Shown here one piece after another: positions 1-20,287 of a stretch of 32,340 nucleotides of DNA. The stretch lies in the IMG/VR virus record IMGVR_UViG_2711768060_000010; one strand, given 5' to 3'. A program made the position numbers and the translations under genes. How positions within the stretch are numbered: position 1 is the stretch's first letter; each line of letters opens with the position of its first letter. The notes under the pieces were generated by a model. The model worked only from the letters and a program-made list of their open reading frames with translations. It was not told the DNA's origin and searched no databases. The DNA is from a virus. Lineage: Duplodnaviria > Heunggongvirae > Uroviricota > Caudoviricetes.

Positions 1-1053
1 CTATAGATCACCTGAATTAATAGAAAAGAGATCTTGGTGGGATTTCATTGATGCCAATGGATTAAATTTTAATGCAGCTTCCAAATGGTCTGGGGCAAGA
101 TGGGCATAGCGCATAGTCATTTTTATATCGTGGTGTCCCAGTATTTTTTGCAGTGCGAGTATATTTCCCCCGGACATCATAAAGTGAGCTGCAAAGGTAT
201 GTCGAAGGACGTGCGTGAGCTGGCCACGCGGCAGTATGATTGAGGTTTTATCCATCACTGATGCAAACTGAAAGTAGTAATCATCAAAAAACTTGAATCC
301 CTTCAGCGCTGTGATCTCTTCATAAAGTTCTTTGCTGATGGGGATGCTTCTATTTTTTTTACCCTTAGTCCTGGTGAAGGTGATGCGGTACTTAGTCACC
401 TGCGATCTGGTTAGGTTTACAGCTTCTCGCCATCGGGCGCCGGTGCTTAAACAAATCTTGACTACCAGCGTTAACAATTCGTTCTGGTGTTGGCAATCAT
501 AAAGCAATTCTGCAATCTGCTCGTGGGTTAGCCACGCCATTTCTTTTTCAGCGATGGTGAATTTGCGCATATTCTCCAAGGGATTAGGTTGCAACCATTC
601 CCCTAAACGGATCAGTTCACTAAAAGCACCGCTTAAATAGCTCTGCTCAAGATTGACGGTTACAGGGCTAGCGCCGTTTTTCCATTTTTCGCTGAAGTAA
701 ATTTCTCCGGTTAAACGCTTATCCCGATAATGAGCAAACATTTTTGGAGTGAGGGACGTGGCTAGGGGATTGCCTAGCGCATCTACTATCAAAATGAGTT
801 TTTCGTATACATGTTGTCCGGCAGACAAAGAGGTGCCGTGAAGTTTGTACCAAAGGTCTACGATATCCCTGAGAGTTCGACGATCTACCGTTTCTCCAAG
901 CCACGGTTTCGCCGCTGTTTCATCCATCGTATGGCGCTCAAATGCTAGCGCCTCGCCTTTGGTGGCAAACTGTTTTCTTACCCTGCGTCCGGAACGCCCG
1001 GAAGGGTAACACTCACAGATCCATCGACCTGTTTCAAGTTTACGAACTGCCAT
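1..1053 (-). CDS. int: Phage integrase, tyrosine recombinase (186/P2-type)
   Basis: 350-aa ORF; C-terminal tyrosine-recombinase motifs visible in translation (HVLRHTFAAH ... GHHDIKMTMRYAHL with catalytic Tyr; upstream TGARWRE Arg box). Lies downstream of the repressor on the same strand as in 186 (pL-cI-int). Stop codon is window bases 1-3, so attL lies outside the window. Confidence 0.9.
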   Translation of the reverse strand: MAVRKLETGRWICECYPSGRSGRRVRKQFATKGEALAFERHTMDETAAKPWLGETVDRRTLRDIVDLWYKLHGTSLSAGQHVYEKLILIVDALGNPLATSLTPKMFAHYRDKRLTGEIYFSEKWKNGASPVTVNLEQSYLSGAFSELIRLGEWLQPNPLENMRKFTIAEKEMAWLTHEQIAELLYDCQHQNELLTLVVKICLSTGARWREAVNLTRSQVTKYRITFTRTKGKKNRSIPISKELYEEITALKGFKFFDDYYFQFASVMDKTSIILPRGQLTHVLRHTFAAHFMMSGGNILALQKILGHHDIKMTMRYAHLAPDHLEAALKFNPLASMKSHQDLFSINSGDL

Positions 1054-1130: not shown

Positions 1131-1751
1131 TCAAACATTGGACATAAGGTAGTAGTAGCATTTAGCCAATGGCTTAAGGTCGTTAATACCGCATTCAAAA
1201 GATTGGCCACCTGAAGCAGGTGTGACAAGAACTTTGCCTACTGGAACGCGGGTGAGTTGTTTGATACTTACTTTTCCTTCAATTTCTACAACCCATGTTC
1301 CATCTGATACTTCGTCGTTTTTCTGATCTGCTACATATTGAATGTCATCATCTAAGATGATCACCGGATTGATGAGGTGAGAGGGGATTATAGCCTTGTC
1401 AAACATGTAGAAATTTGAATCGAACAGATTTCCATCAATTATCTTTTTACGCGGAACAGTAACGACATCACCCAGTAAGTTCTCATTTGCGGATTTCTGT
1501 TCTTCAATTGAAGACTGTGCAGCAGAGCCACTGAATTTCTCACCTTTACCAAACGACAGCCACTCAACTGATGCGCCAGTTTCTATAGAGCACTGGATAA
1601 CCCAATCAGCAGGGAAGATGTCACGCATCCACCTTGTACCCATTGTACTGGTCGAAACATTCAACTGTTCACACAGAGCCTGCCTCGTCTTAAATCCATA
1701 AGCTTCAAGAAGCCTGTTAATAACGGCTTGACCTCCGTTTTTGAAATCCAT
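1131..1751 (-). CDS. cI: CI-like immunity repressor (phage 186 CI family, N-terminal HTH)
   Basis: 206-aa ORF leftward, directly upstream of int; N-terminal motif RLLEAYGF...STSTMGTRW resembles the 186 CI HTH region as I recall it; divergent from the rightward early operon. Confidence 0.7.
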   Translation of the reverse strand: MDFKNGGQAVINRLLEAYGFKTRQALCEQLNVSTSTMGTRWMRDIFPADWVIQCSIETGASVEWLSFGKGEKFSGSAAQSSIEEQKSANENLLGDVVTVPRKKIIDGNLFDSNFYMFDKAIIPSHLINPVIILDDDIQYVADQKNDEVSDGTWVVEIEGKVSIKQLTRVPVGKVLVTPASGGQSFECGINDLKPLAKCYYYLMSNV

Positions 1752-4225: not shown

Positions 4226-5091
4226 TGGAATTAAAAACCATTAAAACCCCGCTCAAATGGGTGGGCAGTAAAGCCCGCCTTATGCCGCAGCTGCGTCACC
4301 ATCTGCCGGAAGGTAAGCGCCTGGTTGAGCCGTTCGCCGGCTCATGCGCGGTGATGATGAATACGGACTATGACGAATATCTGATCGCTGATGTGAACCC
4401 GGATTTGGTCAATCTCTATAAGGTCGTGGCCTATCAGACAGAGGCTTTTCTGAAAGAGCTGGAGATCCTCTTTTCTGCCGGTTCCCTGGGCGATGGCGAA
4501 TCCCAGGCTGTTTTTTATTATGCAGTGCGGGATGCCTTTAACATGTCAGGCAAGGCTTCTGGCAGTGAAAGCGTTGAAGCTGCAGCGCGGTTCGTTTATC
4601 TGAACCGCCACGGTTTTAATGGGCTATGCCGCTATAACCGTCGTGGCATGTTCAACGTGCCATTTGGCAAATATAAAAAGCCATATTTCCCGGCAGATGA
4701 AGTTCGTGCGTTTGCAGAGAAGGCTAAGCGGGCAACGTTCATCACAGCACATTATTCCGAAACGCTGGATATGGTGCGCGATGGTGATGTGGTCTATTGC
4801 GATCCGCCTTATCTGACGGATTCCGGGAATTTTACCTCATACACTGAGGGTGGTTTCTCGCATCTGGATCAGGGCAGGCTGGCGCGTAAGCTGCGCCGCC
4901 TGGCCAGTAAAGGTGTGCCGGTGGTGGCCTCTAATGCCGATCTGGAAATGGTTCATTACCTGTACGCCGGGTTTGAAGCTGTGCGCATTAATGCCCCGCG
5001 CAGTGTTGGCGCCGCAGCTGCAAGCCAGAAAGTTGCCGCAGAGTTAATACTAAAGTCCCCGCTTGATTCCATAGCGGTGGCATGCGCATGA
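4225..5091 (+). CDS. dam: DNA adenine methyltransferase (Dam-like, N6-adenine MTase)
   Basis: 288-aa ORF; catalytic DPPY motif (YCDPPYL) and N-terminal AdoMet-binding region (KWVGSKARL ... EPFAGSCAV) visible in translation; overlaps the start of gene A by 10 nt. Confidence 0.85.
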   Translation: MELKTIKTPLKWVGSKARLMPQLRHHLPEGKRLVEPFAGSCAVMMNTDYDEYLIADVNPDLVNLYKVVAYQTEAFLKELEILFSAGSLGDGESQAVFYYAVRDAFNMSGKASGSESVEAAARFVYLNRHGFNGLCRYNRRGMFNVPFGKYKKPYFPADEVRAFAEKAKRATFITAHYSETLDMVRDGDVVYCDPPYLTDSGNFTSYTEGGFSHLDQGRLARKLRRLASKGVPVVASNADLEMVHYLYAGFEAVRINAPRSVGAAAASQKVAAELILKSPLDSIAVACA

Positions 5092-7109
5092 ATCCTGCCG
5101 CTAATGGCCAACATCACGCCGTCGATACCTGGCGGCGTGAGACGTTCGCGCCGGGTACGCCAGCTGATGCAACGATTACAGAGCGCCGCCTGTGGGCAGT
5201 TAACCCGCAGGATTACGAATGGCGCTCACAGTACCTTCATGAAATACCCGACTGGTTAGCCGGGTATTTTGGCAACCGCTACGAAAAACTTCTGGCTGGT
5301 CGTGATGGCCGTCGCCGTGCCAATACATTCCTGCGCAAAACCATCGGCGGGAATGTATTGCCACGTCTGCGGAAAGTGGCCGCGCGTTATGCGCTGGCTG
5401 AAGATGTCAGCGATCTCACCTTCGGAAAGGCTCTGCAGCGCCTGCCGTCGCTTGACCGCACCGATCTGAAAAAGCTATCTGGCCAGGTATCCAGTTGGAT
5501 GGCGCAAATGTTCTATGAGTTCACTGGCCAGCTGAAAGGAGCGCCGAAGGACGCGCGTGATATGCACCGGCGCACGCTGGACGCTTATCGTAACCTGTGC
5601 GCACTTTCGCTGATGCTGAACAATCAACCCCCGTACTGGGCTGAGCACGAAGCCAACGATGGGGTTCTGGAAACCCGCAAGGCTGAATCCGGCATTTTGC
5701 GCATGAAGGCGCCGGAATGGTGGTATCAGCGCCTGAAGCGTGCGCGTGATCTGCAGCGTGAACATCTGGCCATTGCCGTGGGGCAGGTACAGAAAGCGGC
5801 CAGCGCCTATGTATCACGCAAAACCCTGGGCGAATGGGTAGAGCAGAAAAAACGTAATCTGGAGTTCTTCAAAAAATTCGACCTGATGGACGAAGAAGGG
5901 AACCGCATTGCGCTGGATAGCATGGTGCATCGCAGCGTGGCTAACCCTGCGATCCGCCGATGTGAACTGATGGTGCGCATGCGTGGTTTTGAGGACATAG
6001 CCAATGAGCAGGGGCTTGCCGGTGAGTTCTACACTATAACCGCGCCTTCTCGCTTCCACGCGGTGCACAGTAAAGGCGGGTTTGTCTCTCAGTGGAACGG
6101 CTCCAGCCCGCAGGATACGCAGCGCTATCTGTGTAAGGTCTGGGCGAAGTGCCGCGCCGCCATTTCCCGTGCGGGTATCCACGTATTCGGCTTTCGCGTT
6201 GTAGAACCGCATCACGATGGCACGCCCCACTGGCATATGCTGCTGTTTATGCACCCCCAGGACGTGGACGCCGTGCGCGATATCCTTTGCTATCACGCCC
6301 GCATTGCAGATTCCGAAGAACTGCAGACACCCCACGCGCTTAAGGCGCGTTTTCACGTTGAGCCTATCGATCCCGAAAAAGGGTCGGCTACCGGCTATAT
6401 CGCTAAATACATCTCCAAAAACATCGACGGCTATGCGCTCGATGGTGAAGCCGATGAGGAAACCGGCGAAAACCTGCGTGATATGGCTAAGTCGGTGACG
6501 GCCTGGGCATCACGCTGGCGTATCCGGCAGTTCCAGCAGATTGGCGGGGCGCCTGTCACCGTGTGGCGTGAATTACGTCGCCTGGGCGATCAGCGCCTGA
6601 CTGATGCCCGGATGGATGCCGTGCTCGCTGCTGCTGATGTTGGCGACTGGGCAGCTTATACCCAGTTGCAGGGCGGGGCGCTGGTTGCCCGCCGCGATCT
6701 GATTGTTCGCCTGGCTTACGAAATTACAGAGCAGGGCAACGAGTATGCCGAAGATGTGCAGCGCGTTCAGGGCATCTATTCACCTCACATTCCAGATTCT
6801 GAAGTTTGCACGCGTCTGGTGAAGTGGCAGAAGGTTGCGAAGTTGGCCGAAGCGCCAGCGGAGGCTGGTTTTTCTGGCGGCAACGCCGCCCCTTGGAGTT
6901 CTGTCAATAACTGTACGGAGGGAGGAACCCGGAGACGGTTAAAACTGGAACTGAACCAGCGAGGGTTTGCCGGAACGGATGAAGAAATCGACATTCTGAA
7001 GCGGGGTGGCGGTCTCAAATTTGGCCGATCTGCCCTGATTTACAGGGAAGGGAGGTTGCAGGAGAAACGGAACAATCCGGAAGATGAGCAATGGCCAGGC
7101 TGGCAGTAA
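5082..7109 (+). CDS. Replication initiation endonuclease gpA (rolling-circle HUH protein, P2 A / 186 A-like)
   Basis: 675-aa ORF; HUH motif TPHWHMLLF and active-site Tyr motif GYIAKYISKNIDGY visible; size and position as in P2/186. Confidence 0.85.
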   Translation: MRMNPAANGQHHAVDTWRRETFAPGTPADATITERRLWAVNPQDYEWRSQYLHEIPDWLAGYFGNRYEKLLAGRDGRRRANTFLRKTIGGNVLPRLRKVAARYALAEDVSDLTFGKALQRLPSLDRTDLKKLSGQVSSWMAQMFYEFTGQLKGAPKDARDMHRRTLDAYRNLCALSLMLNNQPPYWAEHEANDGVLETRKAESGILRMKAPEWWYQRLKRARDLQREHLAIAVGQVQKAASAYVSRKTLGEWVEQKKRNLEFFKKFDLMDEEGNRIALDSMVHRSVANPAIRRCELMVRMRGFEDIANEQGLAGEFYTITAPSRFHAVHSKGGFVSQWNGSSPQDTQRYLCKVWAKCRAAISRAGIHVFGFRVVEPHHDGTPHWHMLLFMHPQDVDAVRDILCYHARIADSEELQTPHALKARFHVEPIDPEKGSATGYIAKYISKNIDGYALDGEADEETGENLRDMAKSVTAWASRWRIRQFQQIGGAPVTVWRELRRLGDQRLTDARMDAVLAAADVGDWAAYTQLQGGALVARRDLIVRLAYEITEQGNEYAEDVQRVQGIYSPHIPDSEVCTRLVKWQKVAKLAEAPAEAGFSGGNAAPWSSVNNCTEGGTRRRLKLELNQRGFAGTDEEIDILKRGGGLKFGRSALIYREGRLQEKRNNPEDEQWPGWQ

Positions 7110-7191
7110 TAGCCTGTAAGTGTGTGATATGTAAAACGTAAATTGTTACTGGTGTGAATAAAAAAATTCACAATTAATGCTTTTGAGTGTA

Positions 7192-7207
7192 CTGTATGTT
7201 TATACAG
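7192..7207 (+). promoter_or_regulatory. LexA box (SOS operator) over the -10 of a rightward promoter
   Basis: taCTGTatgtttatACAGtt: exact CTGT-N8-ACAG core with AT-rich spacer; upstream TTCACA (7167-7172) as -35, 17-nt spacer, TACTGT as -10 overlapping the box; 22 nt upstream of the RBS of the following ORF. Confidence 0.7.
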
Positions 7208-7228
7208 TTGTTTGCGTGGGAGGATACT

Positions 7229-7441
7229 GTGCAGGATTTATTTTTTGAAACCGTTGCCTTTCAACGGATCGCTTTAGTTGCAAAACTTATGGCAACCGCT
7301 GACTGTTCTGAAGATGAAAAGGATGTGGCGCTGGCCTGGCTTGGAGAGATGACGCAGGAACTGGGAAGGAAGCTGGATCAGTATGAAAAAAAACACCCCC
7401 ATAATGGGGGCGATTCAGGCGGCAGGGGCGGCTTTCAGTAA
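7229..7441 (+). CDS. LexA-regulated small protein; candidate Tum-like antirepressor/SOS-induction factor
   Basis: GTG start 7229 preceded by GGGAGG (7218-7223); about 70 aa; position after gene A and LexA control parallel phage 186 tum, but the product is shorter than 186 Tum and its identity is inferred from context only. Confidence 0.4.
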   Translation: MQDLFFETVAFQRIALVAKLMATADCSEDEKDVALAWLGEMTQELGRKLDQYEKKHPHNGGDSGGRGGFQ

Positions 7442-7738
7442 ATCCAGAGCCATTTGCTTCTGATTGGGTGACAGATTTTTTAATAAGGTTTGTACCAGAG
7501 CGTCACCCGTTTTAGCGCTGGGGCTGAGAGTGTGGGAAAACGTCAAATTCATAACAAAAGTGTGCCCACACTCCACATCTGCGCATGCGCAGTAAATATC
7601 TGCAATCTGGCGGTGCTTTCGGTTAGTTTTGCGAATCACAGCCTTAGATCCGCACTCCGGACATTCAATTTTCAGGACTCTCATATTCCATTCTCCGGCT
7701 GTCAAATAATGCCTGGATTTTAGCCTTTTTTGACTCAT
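7415..7738 (-). CDS. Ogr/Delta-family zinc-finger transcriptional activator (late gene activator candidate)
   Basis: Cys pattern CPEC...RKTNR...YCACADVECGHTF parallels Ogr/B (CPxC...RTSR...QCxNxxCxxTF); the ATG at 7738 overlaps the portal stop (ATGA), alternative internal start at 7684 has a GGAG RBS. Confidence 0.65.
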   Translation of the reverse strand: MSQKRLKSRHYLTAGEWNMRVLKIECPECGSKAVIRKTNRKHRQIADIYCACADVECGHTFVMNLTFSHTLSPSAKTGDALVQTLLKNLSPNQKQMALDLLKAAPAA

Positions 7739-8787
7739 GCTGCACCCTTCACCGTTGTTTCTTCAGTAAAATTCAAATGCAGGTGGCGCGGAATTTCCGG
7801 ATCGCTGTTGATGGCCATCGCCAGGCGGCGCTGAATGGGCAGCACTTCATTCTTTTTGTAGGTGCGCTCAATCTTTTCCGGGTCGCCCAGCCCGGCAGTA
7901 TTCTGCGGAACAATACCTGCAAGCCCGGCCGGAAAGCGGTGCGCGTTCAGAATGTCCTGGGCGCTGATGTTCTTCACGCTCGCAAATTCATCCTTGGCCG
8001 AAATGTCCCCCATCTCAATAAACTTGATCGCGTCACCGTCGCCGCCAGGGATGTTCACCAGGATGGTGGAGAAGTTGCCGATCCCCTTGCTGTCCCGCAG
8101 CTGCCGTTCAATCTCCTCCTCCATTTCGTCCGTCATGCTGGGGTCACGGGTATACAGAATGCCGCCCGTGTGTGCGCCGTTGTGGTAGTAGCGACGGCGA
8201 AAAATAACTGCCTCACTGTTCAGCAGGGCAGAGTGAACGCCGCCGATGTAGTCCGGCAGACCATAGATGTGCTGCTGCGGGTCGTACATCTTGATGAAAA
8301 TGATATCGTCAGGCGGGAACGCCAGCGGCTCGCCTTCCTGTAAAACCACGTAATCCCCTGGCACAGTCTCCGCGTTTTCTCTCTCCTTTCGTCGGCGGAG
8401 GTAAAGCCCCGGCAGCGGCTGAAGCCCGATCACGTCTCCCCAGCCATTACGGATTTTGGCCACAGCGATATCACCAAAGGTCAGGTAATCAAAAACAGCG
8501 GCCTCCAGCTCGTCGAACGTCAGGCCGCCGCCCTGATAGTCCGCCGTCACCATGTTTTTACGGGCGTGGATAATCCCGCCGTGCTGGCCGTTCAGGTTGA
8601 TAAGCTGCGCCAGCGCCAGACGGTCAATCGGCTGGGTGTAGTGGTCGGCGGCGTTGTCGTACCAGATTTCCCGGTAATCGGTTCCGGTAGTCAGTACCGG
8701 TTCTGGTTTGCCAAAGCTGATAATGCTCATTTTTTTGGACTTATCGCCGCGCTGTTCGCGCTTCACAAAACGTTTCTTTTTGCTCAT
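7735..8787 (-). CDS. Portal protein (P2 gpQ-like)
   Basis: 350-aa ORF directly downstream of the terminase large subunit on the same strand; size matches P2 Q (about 344 aa). Confidence 0.85.
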   Translation of the reverse strand: MSKKKRFVKREQRGDKSKKMSIISFGKPEPVLTTGTDYREIWYDNAADHYTQPIDRLALAQLINLNGQHGGIIHARKNMVTADYQGGGLTFDELEAAVFDYLTFGDIAVAKIRNGWGDVIGLQPLPGLYLRRRKERENAETVPGDYVVLQEGEPLAFPPDDIIFIKMYDPQQHIYGLPDYIGGVHSALLNSEAVIFRRRYYHNGAHTGGILYTRDPSMTDEMEEEIERQLRDSKGIGNFSTILVNIPGGDGDAIKFIEMGDISAKDEFASVKNISAQDILNAHRFPAGLAGIVPQNTAGLGDPEKIERTYKKNEVLPIQRRLAMAINSDPEIPRHLHLNFTEETTVKGAA

Positions 8788-10556
8788 GCTGCTTGTTTCC
8801 TTACACCCCAGCGGGATTTTGGTTTGTTTTCATAGTTGAGTGGTTCGTTATGCAGGGCGTGGGTGATTGCCCAGAATGCCTCTGCGTGGCCAGTGTCCTG
8901 GCTGCGGTCTGCAACAAAGGTCATTGCGTTACCGCTCTGCGTGGTAGTGCGCCGCACTGACATAAAGCTGGCGGGGATTTCCTTCAGGTTTTTGTCCCAC
9001 TCGATACGCTGGCTTTCCACCACATCGGCGGCCTTCAGTACCAGCTGGTTTTTGGTGTTCATGTCGTAGCGAATCGGGACAACAACCTTCATGGCAAAGT
9101 GCTGGATATTGTCAAACACCCCCTGGCCGATCCCGGTTACGTCCACGCCCAGATAAGTGAAGTTGTACTGGTCAAACAGCTTTTCGATCTGCTTTGCCTG
9201 GTGACGGAAGTTCATGCCCTTCCAGTAAATCACCTTCAGCACGCGGAATTTTTCCACGGCAAACATCGGCGGGGCGACAATCACAAAACACGACAAATCG
9301 CCGCTGCGTGCCGGGTCAAAGCCGCCCCATACTGGCCTGTCACCAAACGGCCGTTTTGCATCCGGGTCGTGATCCTGCCAGGTGTCCACCTCCACGCCGC
9401 ACGCTTCCAGGTCGGAAAAGCTGAAAACGGAATCCTTGCTGTCCACGAACACGCACATGTAAAGCATGTCGAATGTGGCGGTGTTGTAGCGGTTGCGCAG
9501 CTTCTCGATGTTGGCCAGATTGAAGCCACCCGCAATGGCATCTTCCATGGTGATGACATAGCGCCACTGGCCATCCGGGCAGAGCCGTCCACCGTTCCGC
9601 ATTTCATCGAACAGTGGAAACGTAATGGCCGCACGTTTCTTGCTGCCCTGTTTCCACTCTTCACCCGTCCAGAACGGATACGCCTGGTGCGTTTTGGCCG
9701 ATGGCGTGGAAAAGTAGGTGGTACGCCATTTGTCATGTGTGGCCATCGCGCTGGCCACTTCATTGAGTTTTGCAAAGTTGGGCACCCAAAAATATTCATC
9801 ACAGTAAAGATGGCCACTGTATGACTGGGCGGTGTTTTTGTTGGTAGACAGGAACCGCAGCTCTGCGCCGTTGCTTAAGCGGATCGGGTTCCCCGTCAGC
9901 GTGATGCCAAAATACTGTTCTGCAATGTTGACGATGTAAGACCGGAACACCTCCGCCTGTGCTTTGGATGCGGACAGGAAGATTTGCGGATCGCCCGTCA
10001 TTACCGCATTTTCGAACGCTTCAAACGCAAAGTACCAGGTTGCACCGATCTGGCGACTTTTCAGGATGTTCCTGACCAGCTGGCCTATGTTGCGGCGCAG
10101 GTGTTTCTGATATTCGAAAAGATGCTCCTCTGCCCAGGTGTCAAAATCCTCCTGGGTCAGAGACGAGATATCGTTTTTCTTGTACTTGCGTTTGCTGCGC
10201 GGCTCGTCGTCGTCCCCTCGCGCAGCTGCTTGCCGTTCCCCCTGGCTGGAGGCCAGCTTTTCTTTATGTTTATTGCTCTGGGCACGCAGCTTTGTGGCGT
10301 GAGCAATAAGCAAATCCATTTCTTTTAAATCCAGATCCGTTTTATTGTCGCGCCCGGCTAACAGCTGGTAACGGCGTTCAATTGCCTCCTCTGTGCTTTC
10401 GAAACTGAGCAGGTCAGCCCATTTATATTTTTCTGCCCAGTAGTAAACGATCCGCGCATTCGGCAGATTTAATTCTGATGCAATTTCTTTGGGCGTGTAA
10501 CGGCGCAAGTAGAGTGCGCGGACAACGCCTTTTAATTCGTCTGAGTATTTAGCCAT
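8784..10556 (-). CDS. Terminase large subunit, ATPase (P2 gpP-like)
   Basis: 590-aa ORF (P2 P is 590 aa); divergent from the O-N-M-L operon as in P2/186. Confidence 0.9.
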   Translation of the reverse strand: MAKYSDELKGVVRALYLRRYTPKEIASELNLPNARIVYYWAEKYKWADLLSFESTEEAIERRYQLLAGRDNKTDLDLKEMDLLIAHATKLRAQSNKHKEKLASSQGERQAAARGDDDEPRSKRKYKKNDISSLTQEDFDTWAEEHLFEYQKHLRRNIGQLVRNILKSRQIGATWYFAFEAFENAVMTGDPQIFLSASKAQAEVFRSYIVNIAEQYFGITLTGNPIRLSNGAELRFLSTNKNTAQSYSGHLYCDEYFWVPNFAKLNEVASAMATHDKWRTTYFSTPSAKTHQAYPFWTGEEWKQGSKKRAAITFPLFDEMRNGGRLCPDGQWRYVITMEDAIAGGFNLANIEKLRNRYNTATFDMLYMCVFVDSKDSVFSFSDLEACGVEVDTWQDHDPDAKRPFGDRPVWGGFDPARSGDLSCFVIVAPPMFAVEKFRVLKVIYWKGMNFRHQAKQIEKLFDQYNFTYLGVDVTGIGQGVFDNIQHFAMKVVVPIRYDMNTKNQLVLKAADVVESQRIEWDKNLKEIPASFMSVRRTTTQSGNAMTFVADRSQDTGHAEAFWAITHALHNEPLNYENKPKSRWGVRKQAA

Positions 10557-12608: not shown

Positions 12609-13310
12609 ATGTCTCTTTCACCCGCGCAGCGTCATAACCAGCGCATTGCGATGGAACAAAAGCTGAAACAAAGCCTGGCCGTTGGCACCACGGAAAGCAT
12701 GCACCTTCTGATTAAGGCGCTGGAAACAGACGTGGAACAGGTGCGAAGCCTGCCGCTGATTGCGGATCGCGTTGAGCATAAGCGCAATGTGCTGCTGCCC
12801 AAATGGGTGCCGACTGTGGAAGCGTATCTGGCCAGCGGCCAGGTGTATGCCAATCCGGTTCTGGCCTGGTGCGTGATCTGGCTGTTTGACGTGGGCTATC
12901 TGGATAAGGCGCTGGAATGGGCTGATATCGCTATTGCCCAGCAACAGGCCACGCCGGAACGGCTGCGCAGCAATTTCCCGACGTTCGTGGCCGATACGAT
13001 GCTGGCCTGGGCTGAGGAGTCTGCGGGACGCGGGGAAAGCATTGAACCGTATTTTTCACGCACGTTTGAGAACGTGGCCACCCGGTGGCGGCTGCATGAG
13101 CAGGTGACGGCGAAATGGTTCAAGTTCGCCGGGTTGCAGCTGCTGCGCGGTGAGGATGGCCAGAAAACGGCGGCGGGTGTGGACGATGTGGAAACACTTC
13201 AGAAAGCCGATCAGCTGCTGGCCACCGCAGAACAGCATTACCTGAAAATCGGCGTTAAAACGCAGCGGCAGACCATCGCCGCACGCATCCGAAAACTGAC
13301 GCAGGGTTAA
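12609..13310 (+). CDS. Terminase small/endonuclease subunit (P2 gpM-like)
   Basis: 233-aa ORF immediately after the capsid gene, as in the P2 Q-P / O-N-M-L head cassette. Confidence 0.75.
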   Translation: MSLSPAQRHNQRIAMEQKLKQSLAVGTTESMHLLIKALETDVEQVRSLPLIADRVEHKRNVLLPKWVPTVEAYLASGQVYANPVLAWCVIWLFDVGYLDKALEWADIAIAQQQATPERLRSNFPTFVADTMLAWAEESAGRGESIEPYFSRTFENVATRWRLHEQVTAKWFKFAGLQLLRGEDGQKTAAGVDDVETLQKADQLLATAEQHYLKIGVKTQRQTIAARIRKLTQG

Positions 13311-18224: not shown

Positions 18225-20287
18225 AACAGTTAGATTTTACATTAAGCCTGATCGATAAATTGTCACGCCCGTTAAAACAGGCGCAGGGCAGCGTGACCGG
18301 CTTTGCGGAAAAATCAAACGCAGCGTTTAAGCAGATTGGCGGCGGGGCGCTGGCGCTGGTCGGAACGGGGATGGCCATTAAAAGCGCTTTGTCTCCGGCC
18401 ATTGAGATGTATGACGCGCTGAACGATGCGGCCGCAAAAGGCATCGACAACACTGCGCTTAAGACGGTGCAGCGCGATGCGCTGACGTTCAGCATGACCT
18501 ACGGTGCCAGCGCACTGGATTTTGTTAAGTCCACTGAGGAGATTAACACCGCCATTGCCGGGCTGACCGGAACGGAACTGCCGAAAGTGACCAAAACCGC
18601 CAATACCCTGGCGTTTGCCCTCAAAGCCACCTCCGCGGATACGGCGGAGTTTATGGGGCAAATGTTCGGCAACTTCTCGTCAGATGCTGAGCGGCTGGGC
18701 AAAGTCCAGTTTGCGGAACAGCTGGCGGGCAAGATGGTTTTCATGCGCAAAACCTTTGGCACCGAAATGGCCACTATTAAAGACCTGATGGAAGGCGCGC
18801 GCGGCGTGGGTACAAATTACGGCGTAGGGCTTGATGAACAGCTGACCGTGCTGGGGCAACTGAACCGCACGCTGGGTTCTGAAGCCAGTAGTGCCTATGA
18901 AGGCTTTATGACCGGGGCGATTGAAGGCGGCAAAAAGCTGGGGCTGTCCTTCACGGACTCCACCGGGAAAATGCTGTCCATGCCTGAAATGCTGATCAAG
19001 CTGCAGGGCAAATATGGCAAGAGCCTGGAAGGGAACCTGAAAGCACAGGCGGAGCTGGATGAAGCCTTTGGTGACAGTTCGGCAGTGGTTAAGCATCTTT
19101 ATGGCAACGTGGCGCTGCTGCAGAGAAACATCACCGAACTGGGCGGCGCTGACGGGCTGAAGCGTACACAGGAAATGGCCAGCAAGATGGTGAAGCCGTG
19201 GGATCGGTTCGTGGCTATTCTGACGGCGATTAAAACCGTGATTGGGCTGACGCTGATCCCGGTACTGTATCCGGTGCTGAATCGCCTGGCGGATATGGGG
19301 CAGACGTTTGCACGCTGGATGCAGCTGTTTCCCAATATCGCGCGTGTGGTGGGTTATGCAGCGATGGCACTGCTTAGCTTTGCCGCCGTGGGTGCAGTGG
19401 TCAACATCCTGATGGGTGTTTCTGCTTTCGTTATGGGTGGCCTGCGCGGGATCTGGGTGGCGCTGGCCTCAGTGACGCGCATTTACACCGCCACTATCTG
19501 GCTGGCACAGAAAGCCGTTGTTGTCTGGAATATCACCCTGGGTGCGTTGCGAGGCATCCTGCTGGCGGTGCGTATGTCGGCAATTATGGCCGGGGTGGGC
19601 ATCAATCTTATGAGCCTGCCGATTCTGCTGGTTATCGGGGCGATTGCTGCGCTGGCCGCTGGTTGTTACCTGCTGATCCGTAACTGGGAAGCGATTAAAA
19701 CCGCTGTCATGAATACGGAAGCCTTTGCAGCAGCTGCAGCAGTGGTTAAGTGGCTGGCGGGTATTTTTGCCAGCGCCTGGCAATACATCAGCGATGGATG
19801 GAATGCCTTTACTGCATTGCTGGCCGGGTTCTCTCCTGCGCAGGCGCTTAGGGGAATGGCCACGGGCATCATGACGATGTTTGATAACGTCTGGCAGACC
19901 ATCAAAGACAGTTTCCTTAAATCATGGAACTGGATTGTAGAGAAGCTAAATAAAATACCGGGCGTGAATATAGGGCTGGCAGAAACTTCAGCGCAAGCAG
20001 CTGCGGTTCCGGTGCCTGAATTAAAACAGGTTGCTAAAGCAGAGGGGGCAGCATCATCCCTGCCACAAAATATTAACGCCAGTAATCCGCAGCCGCTTCT
20101 GACTTCAAATACTCTTTCCACAGGTGGTGAGTTAAAGGGCATTGAAAAGGGCGGTCTTTCAAAAACAATTAACAGCAATTCTAAATCTGTTGTTGATAAC
20201 AGTAAAAAAATTGAAAACGTTAATATTTATCCAAAAGAAATGTTAACGCCTGGCCAGTTAATGGAGTATCAGGAGTTGGGCGCATGA
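18221..20287 (+). CDS. Tail tape measure protein
   Basis: 688-aa ORF, Ala/Gly-rich with a central hydrophobic block; follows the chaperone/frameshift pair, the canonical position for a tape measure gene. Confidence 0.85.
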   Translation: MKQLDFTLSLIDKLSRPLKQAQGSVTGFAEKSNAAFKQIGGGALALVGTGMAIKSALSPAIEMYDALNDAAAKGIDNTALKTVQRDALTFSMTYGASALDFVKSTEEINTAIAGLTGTELPKVTKTANTLAFALKATSADTAEFMGQMFGNFSSDAERLGKVQFAEQLAGKMVFMRKTFGTEMATIKDLMEGARGVGTNYGVGLDEQLTVLGQLNRTLGSEASSAYEGFMTGAIEGGKKLGLSFTDSTGKMLSMPEMLIKLQGKYGKSLEGNLKAQAELDEAFGDSSAVVKHLYGNVALLQRNITELGGADGLKRTQEMASKMVKPWDRFVAILTAIKTVIGLTLIPVLYPVLNRLADMGQTFARWMQLFPNIARVVGYAAMALLSFAAVGAVVNILMGVSAFVMGGLRGIWVALASVTRIYTATIWLAQKAVVVWNITLGALRGILLAVRMSAIMAGVGINLMSLPILLVIGAIAALAAGCYLLIRNWEAIKTAVMNTEAFAAAAAVVKWLAGIFASAWQYISDGWNAFTALLAGFSPAQALRGMATGIMTMFDNVWQTIKDSFLKSWNWIVEKLNKIPGVNIGLAETSAQAAAVPVPELKQVAKAEGAASSLPQNINASNPQPLLTSNTLSTGGELKGIEKGGLSKTINSNSKSVVDNSKKIENVNIYPKEMLTPGQLMEYQELGA

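Follow-up and report, generated by a model that had tools for sequence, protein, structure and literature searches.

The locus behind the replication gene A of this prophage raises a simple question: does a small open reading frame that follows a LexA (SOS) box connect the lysis-lysogeny switch to DNA damage in the host, and if so, by what route? The DNA analysed here, which we call the window, is the whole stretch of 32,340 nucleotides deposited as IMG/VR record IMGVR_UViG_2711768060_000010. It is a P2-family (Peduoviridae) prophage; the tested stretch of it is 100% identical to the E. coli LR-51 chromosome, and its nearest named phages are those of the ESSI-2/Quadragintavirus group. The gene list begins with int (1–1053, minus strand) and the gene for a 186-type immunity repressor, CI, of 206 amino acids (1131–1751, minus strand), and continues with a Cox/Apl-like gene (1888–2109), CII of the CP76 family (2142–2645), Fil (2649–2852), a DUF2732 gene, a Dam methylase and the A replicase (5082–7109). 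The small gene (7229–7441, plus strand), which we assign on the basis of the PHROG, BLASTP, hhalign and dN/dS results described below to the short, TumA-type antirepressors, comes after the A replicase gene, as in phage 186. It is followed on the minus strand by an Ogr/Delta-like late activator gene (7415–7684; Pfam Ogr_Delta, E = 1.6e-19), the portal gene (7735–8787) and the large terminase gene (8784–10556).

The CI protein of the window matches the Pfam models Phage_CI_repr and Phage_CI_C and carries no S24 peptidase domain. Since these are the domains of the 186 repressor, and since S24 is absent, the lysis-lysogeny switch is of the 186 rather than the P2 type; its gene set comprises CI, Cox/Apl, CII and Fil. 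RecA-prompted self-cleavage would not be expected of a CI with these domains. Four GGAAAGT/ACTTTCC half-sites (1764–1820) straddle a pR-like promoter on the plus strand (TTGACA-17-TATTTT, 1777–1805), and these half-sites, which are unlike the operators of 186, are probable CI operators at pR.

Upstream of the small gene, the sequence TACTGTATGTTTATACAGTT (7190–7209) agrees with the 20-mer LexA consensus TACTGTATATATATACAGTA at 17 of 20 positions and with the p95 operator of phage 186, TACTGTATGTTTATACAGTA, at 19 of 20. It combines the CTGT-N8-ACAG core, the AT-rich centre and the closeness to the consensus that characterize an E. coli-type SOS box. The site is beyond chance and statistically exceptional: two sites in the window, this one and another at 1089–1108, have no more than three mismatches to the consensus, where 100 shuffles gave an expectation of 0.00. 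The CTGT-N8-ACAG core occurs three times in the window (0.37 expected), and the third match, ATCTGTTGTTGATAACAGTA at 20185–20204, which has a poorer centre and lies in the structural-gene part, is likely a product of chance. The -10 hexamer TACTGT (7190–7195, plus strand) is formed by the first six bases of the box, and the -10 of p95 likewise lies inside its LexA box; the -35 hexamer TTCACA (7167–7172, plus strand) is kept in most relatives. Both hexamers are identical to those annotated for p95, with a spacer of 17 nucleotides in the window versus 18 in 186. The near-perfect SOS box overlapping a -10 element, with TTCACA as -35, that a preliminary description of this DNA had proposed is therefore present in full. 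A generic sigma-70 promoter scan made no call on the SOS promoter upstream of the small gene because TACTGT fits the -10 consensus at only three of six positions; the same poor fit, and hence the same miss, applies to the experimentally defined p95. In the annotated 186 record, p95 (‘SOS-dependent transcription of SOS operon’) and a LexA site are located directly before tum, downstream of gene A, in agreement with the genomic position that the preliminary description had assigned to an SOS-controlled antirepressor gene.

The open reading frame begins with a GTG codon at 7229 and ends at 7441 after 70 codons, and a strong ribosome-binding site, GGGAGG (7218–7223, plus strand), stands 5 nucleotides before the start, as had been described; more distant relatives have ATG in place of GTG. 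It is a real gene whose protein is under strong purifying selection, with a median dN/dS of ~0.13 for codons 2–55 across related loci. An exhaustive profile search (E up to 0.001) yielded a family of 84 clusters at 50% identity, nearly all of 47–123 and typically of 55–75 amino acids. With the family alignment as input, AlphaFold2 predicts a two-helix hairpin (residues 5–23 and 28–55) with a confident mean pLDDT of 85, and a tail (residues 56–70) of low confidence that is predicted to be disordered. The conserved core comprises residues 1–55. The DNA for residues 56–70 also carries, on its other strand, the terminator and the last codons of the ogr-like gene, and the functional unit of the modelled protein is therefore probably residues 1–55. 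A Foldseek search of the model against the PDB and BFVD returned only generic helical-hairpin matches, all with E values above 0.5; searching the sequences of the PDB with the family profile gave nothing meaningful, and no Pfam or NCBIfam model matches the open reading frame.

The protein matches three PHROGs, phrog_698 (E = 5e-17), phrog_8554 and phrog_1993, all of which are also hit by the N-terminal part of 186 Tum. BLASTP aligned its residues 7–43 with residues 7–43 of 186 Tum (30% identity, E = 6e-7), and a profile built from 43 family sequences aligned with Tum residues 4–44 at an hhalign probability of 95% (E = 3e-8). These sequence comparisons establish homology between the tum-like protein and the N-terminal, antirepressor region of 186 Tum. 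The remainder of 186 Tum is DinI-like and has no counterpart here: the Pfam and NCBIfam searches gave no DinI domain, so the protein does not have the full-length Tum-DinI form, and tblastn with the DinI part of 186 Tum gave no hit either in the window or in any of 38 related loci. Higher identities were obtained with two 62-residue proteins, STM2728 of Fels-2 (42%, E = 1e-16) and ECHS_RS04495, the tum product of the E. coli HS prophage DuoHS (42%, E = 7e-17).

What is known of these homologues bears directly on function. The ability of 186 Tum to bind CI and to block its operator binding is credited in PMC3121763 to Shearwin et al. 1998. Lemire et al. (PMC3121763) point out that Tum resembles a fusion of an antirepressor with DinI, that tum is split by a stop codon in Fels-2 and PSP3, and that the antirepressor activity of PSP3 resides in the upstream half of the split gene. 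In DuoHS, neither lysis nor virions were seen after mitomycin C when tum (ECHS_RS04495) was deleted, and likewise in a lexA(Ind-) background (Phollow paper, PMC12055606). The deletion phenotype means that a stand-alone 62-residue Tum already has experimental support, and the window gene, judged by its similarity to these proteins, is a diverged member of this stand-alone short Tum family. It unites homology to Tum, a LexA box over its promoter and a site after gene A in a phage with a 186-type CI, as expected of a short or TumA-type Tum. The proposal in the preliminary description of an SOS switch of the 186 type thus holds for the promoter elements, for the CI/Apl/CII/Fil gene set and for the protein. 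Its suggestion that the product, at 70 residues against the 146 of 186 Tum, might be a minimal antirepressor is supported by the N-terminal homology, and such a short form is not new.

The locus shares with the p95-tum operon of 186 its position after gene A, its promoter hexamers and its switch type. In contrast to 186, however, the protein lacks the DinI-like C-terminal half and the internal restart products, there are no orf97 and no t95 terminators, and the monocistronic gene shares its 3' end with a convergent ogr-like gene; even the shared region of the two proteins is only ~30% identical. The short tum genes of PSP3 (tumA/tumB), Fels-2 and DuoHS also encode small stand-alone proteins after gene A, with an upstream LexA box, but there the gene is still followed by a separate dinI-like gene (TumB) and by an orf97-like gene, where the window has the convergent ogr-like gene only. 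The Gifsy antirepressors GfoA and GftA and AntC of N15 follow the same logic, in which a LexA-repressed small antirepressor inactivates a non-cleavable repressor, and for these antirepressors a trans-acting, promiscuous action has been documented (PMC3121763). These proteins, however, show no detectable sequence relation to the window gene and belong to another phage type with another repressor family. Both the SOS-antirepressor mechanism and the short Tum form (PSP3, Fels-2) were therefore already known; four features are specific to the window's lineage: there is no dinI partner, the gene overlaps ogr tail to tail, one Tum goes with many CI types, and an extra SOS box stands before int.

For comparison we used the 38 related loci (viral contigs and one genome), to which 186, ESSI2_ev040, Fels-2, DuoHS and three distant metagenomic members were added. 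A canonical CTGT-N8-ACAG box is present in all 29 unique upstream sequences and in the distant members. It lies 39 nucleotides before the start codon in the window and 35–42 nucleotides before it in the relatives, compared with 61 in Fels-2 and DuoHS. The sequence around the box diverges freely while the box itself is kept, and LexA control is thus a defining, selected property of the tum-like family. No DinI-like sequence occurs in any of the ESSI-2-like loci, and in each of them the ogr-like gene converges on the tum-like gene and overlaps it, with portal and terminase next. A scan of species-representative genomes returned a single tum-like locus, and a word-indexed protein search with the tum-like protein returned close Enterobacter relatives only. 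In the close relatives and phage records that we inspected, the gene never bears a Tum or antirepressor annotation, and almost all copies are labelled ‘hypothetical protein’.

With the box and its conservation throughout the family, the homology of promoter and protein, the purifying selection and a switch of the 186 type in hand, we consider it about 80% probable that 7167–7441 is the SOS induction module, of the p95-tum type, of a 186-type P2-family prophage, and that it works as follows. In the lysogen, we infer, host LexA would sit on the box at 7190–7209 and cover the -10 element and the start region of the p95 counterpart. DNA damage would lead to RecA-stimulated cleavage of LexA and free the promoter, from which the 70-residue protein, a predicted two-helix hairpin with a disordered tail that corresponds to the antirepressor part of Tum standing alone, would be made. 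This protein would bind the non-autocleaving CI, its presumed target, and stop it from binding its operators; with CI off the operators, the lytic pR promoter would be released and the prophage would be induced.

The surroundings of the module have features of their own. The tum-like and ogr-like genes are convergent and overlap tail to tail by 27 nucleotides. The open frame of the ogr-like gene reaches up to 7738, and its start at 7684 was assigned by analogy with relatives. Its intrinsic terminator, a GC hairpin followed by T8 on the minus strand (7394–7412), falls inside codons 56–62 of the tum-like gene. A terminator scan and reading of the sequence revealed no good plus-strand terminator after the tum-like gene, and the SOS transcript may therefore run antisense into ogr. 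The ogr-like gene is directly downstream of portal, at the end of the portal-terminase late operon; this placement is unusual, and would allow positive feedback on ogr. In P2 and 186, by comparison, the position that it holds is taken by cos. Alignment with the 186 cos junction gave no convincing match in the interval from A to portal. Within the window, the 186 cohesive-end sequence is matched best at 13024–13042 (CGGGACGCGGGGAAAGCAT, with a 13-nucleotide identical run, GCGGGGAAAGCAT), a site that falls inside the terminase small-subunit (M-like) gene and does not adjoin portal.

The preliminary description had also drawn attention to an inverted repeat just upstream of the box and had suggested that a regulator other than CRP might bind it. 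The repeat, TGTGAAT-N6-ATTCACA (equivalently TGTGAA-N8-TTCACA, with arms at 7153–7158 and 7167–7172), is indeed present at 7153–7172 as a perfect 7-bp dyad, its right arm being the -35 hexamer. It is only marginally beyond chance: GTGAA-N6-10-TTCAC occurs once in the window against 0.07 expected, with at least one occurrence in 6 of 100 shuffles, and a stem of equal length arose in 13 of 300 shuffles of the local 50 nucleotides (~4%). Several candidate functions were considered and rejected. For a CRP site, the pentamers TGTGA and TCACA are separated by 10 nucleotides and not by the 6 that are needed, as the preliminary description had recognized. The half-sites GTGAAT and ATTCAC are those of the FL and FR sites of 186 CI (ATTCAC-N5-GTGAAT), but they are everted here (GTGAAT-N6-ATTCAC). 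The operators of the window's own CI are GGAAAGT repeats that bear no sequence relation to the dyad, and the dyad is unchanged across CI types. An Ogr activator site (TGT-N12-ACA) and a gene A terminator were dismissed on grounds of spacing, arrangement, stem weakness or non-conservation.

Could the dyad nevertheless be the operator of a second regulator, of host or phage origin, that gates the SOS promoter? Its overlap with the -35 hexamer, its half-sites, and the weaker TGTGA-N9-TCACA that 186 has in this position would all be compatible with such a role. However, the dyad is perfect only in the window's close lineage, and Fels-2 and DuoHS have a different inverted repeat at this position. 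The right arm is widely kept in the family, as expected of a promoter element, whereas the left arm is not kept in most relatives: it has a point mutation in locus L037, where TTCACA is retained, and is absent or mutated in L051, L054, L055, L039 and others. The identical promoter region, moreover, also accompanies unrelated CI types. Considering the local significance, the spacing and the everted half-sites as well, we regard a second operator as quite improbable and the dyad as, most likely, a by-product of the -35 hexamer and an A-tract; the suggestion of a different regulator, with conservation confined to the right arm, is unsupported. A still more remote proposition is that the output of the SOS promoter is the transcript and not the protein, so that antisense RNA through the ogr-like gene and the portal-terminase operon tunes late expression. 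The tail-to-tail overlap, the only good terminator in it acting on the minus strand, and the retention of this arrangement in all related loci would fit such a role. Against it stand the strong purifying selection at the protein level, the occurrence of the family in Fels-2, DuoHS and 186 contexts that have no ogr downstream, and the consideration that antisense silencing of a late activator would oppose lytic growth.

The most substantial alternative concerns the target. In loci L028–L061, an identical Tum core (residues 1–55, 100%) is paired with CI proteins that are 47–100% identical to that of the window, in several cases only 47–78%, and a 98% identical core occurs in a locus whose CI shows 35% identity. 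When all pairs are compared, the divergence of Tum is only weakly correlated with that of CI (Spearman 0.27), and antirepressor and immunity type do not change together. A highly specific antirepressor-repressor pair would not be expected to behave in this way, and finding one Tum core with many CI proteins calls either for a target surface that is conserved on CI or for another target altogether. The gene could accordingly be SOS-induced with a product that does not act on CI and serves RecA/SOS modulation or another damage function, induction of the prophage coming from elsewhere; the near-uniform labelling of the database copies as hypothetical proteins leaves room for this. Such a role seems unlikely to us, however, as it is the antirepressor half of Tum, not the DinI half, to which the protein is homologous, induction of DuoHS depends on its tum, the closest homologue tested, and a CI without the S24 autocleavage domain needs another SOS input to the switch. 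The invariant residues of CI cluster in its N-terminal DNA-binding domain (YGF..., FP.D, C..ET, WL.G.G). We favour, by analogy with the cross-acting Gifsy antirepressors, a model in which the antirepressor would recognize a surface conserved across the CI family over one in which it has another target.

Returning to the SOS induction module, the second of the two near-consensus LexA boxes, TACTGTTTATTTATACAGTG (1089–1108), may extend its reach. It is located in the 77-bp gap between the stop codon of cI and the start of int, within the spacer of a minus-strand promoter that leads into int (TTGACA, 18 nucleotides, AAAAAT; 1083–1112) and matches the consensus at 10 of 12 positions. Promoter and box are kept in all nine related loci that carry the same int type (9/9). 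Both are missing from loci in which a different int type adjoins cI directly, and also from 186, where cI and int overlap. The sequence thus suggests that int, too, is under LexA control in the window's lineage. A literature search, of incomplete coverage, gave no description of such a LexA-boxed prophage int promoter. The int leader also contains a minus-strand hairpin, ATACCCC...GGGGTAT (1054–1085), that covers the int ribosome-binding site (GAGGGG) by pairing with it and whose stem is kept, with sequence changes, in loci L042, L048 and L056; this hairpin may serve to control translation or to terminate cI. As a tentative proposal, for which we would claim less than even odds, the ESSI-2-like lineage might wire the SOS response into the prophage at two points, with a promiscuous, DinI-less minimal Tum that hits a conserved CI surface and a LexA-repressed int promoter, such that derepression and excision proceed in parallel.

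The module itself is real but ordinary, in that it represents a known route by which prophages are woken after DNA damage; the gene is new and unannotated. It provides a functional name for a family of about 84 protein clusters, and it probably means that a helical hairpin of ~55 residues is the smallest unit of Tum and needs no DinI partner in its operon. The mosaic combination of a single Tum with a range of CI proteins offers a simple system for mapping the part of the 186-type repressor that an antirepressor recognizes, and the SOS box before int is likewise a simple object of study. For the biology of these phages, our analysis predicts that the prophage of the window, and its many Enterobacter relatives, would be inducible by DNA damage, including that caused by antibiotics that trigger the SOS response.
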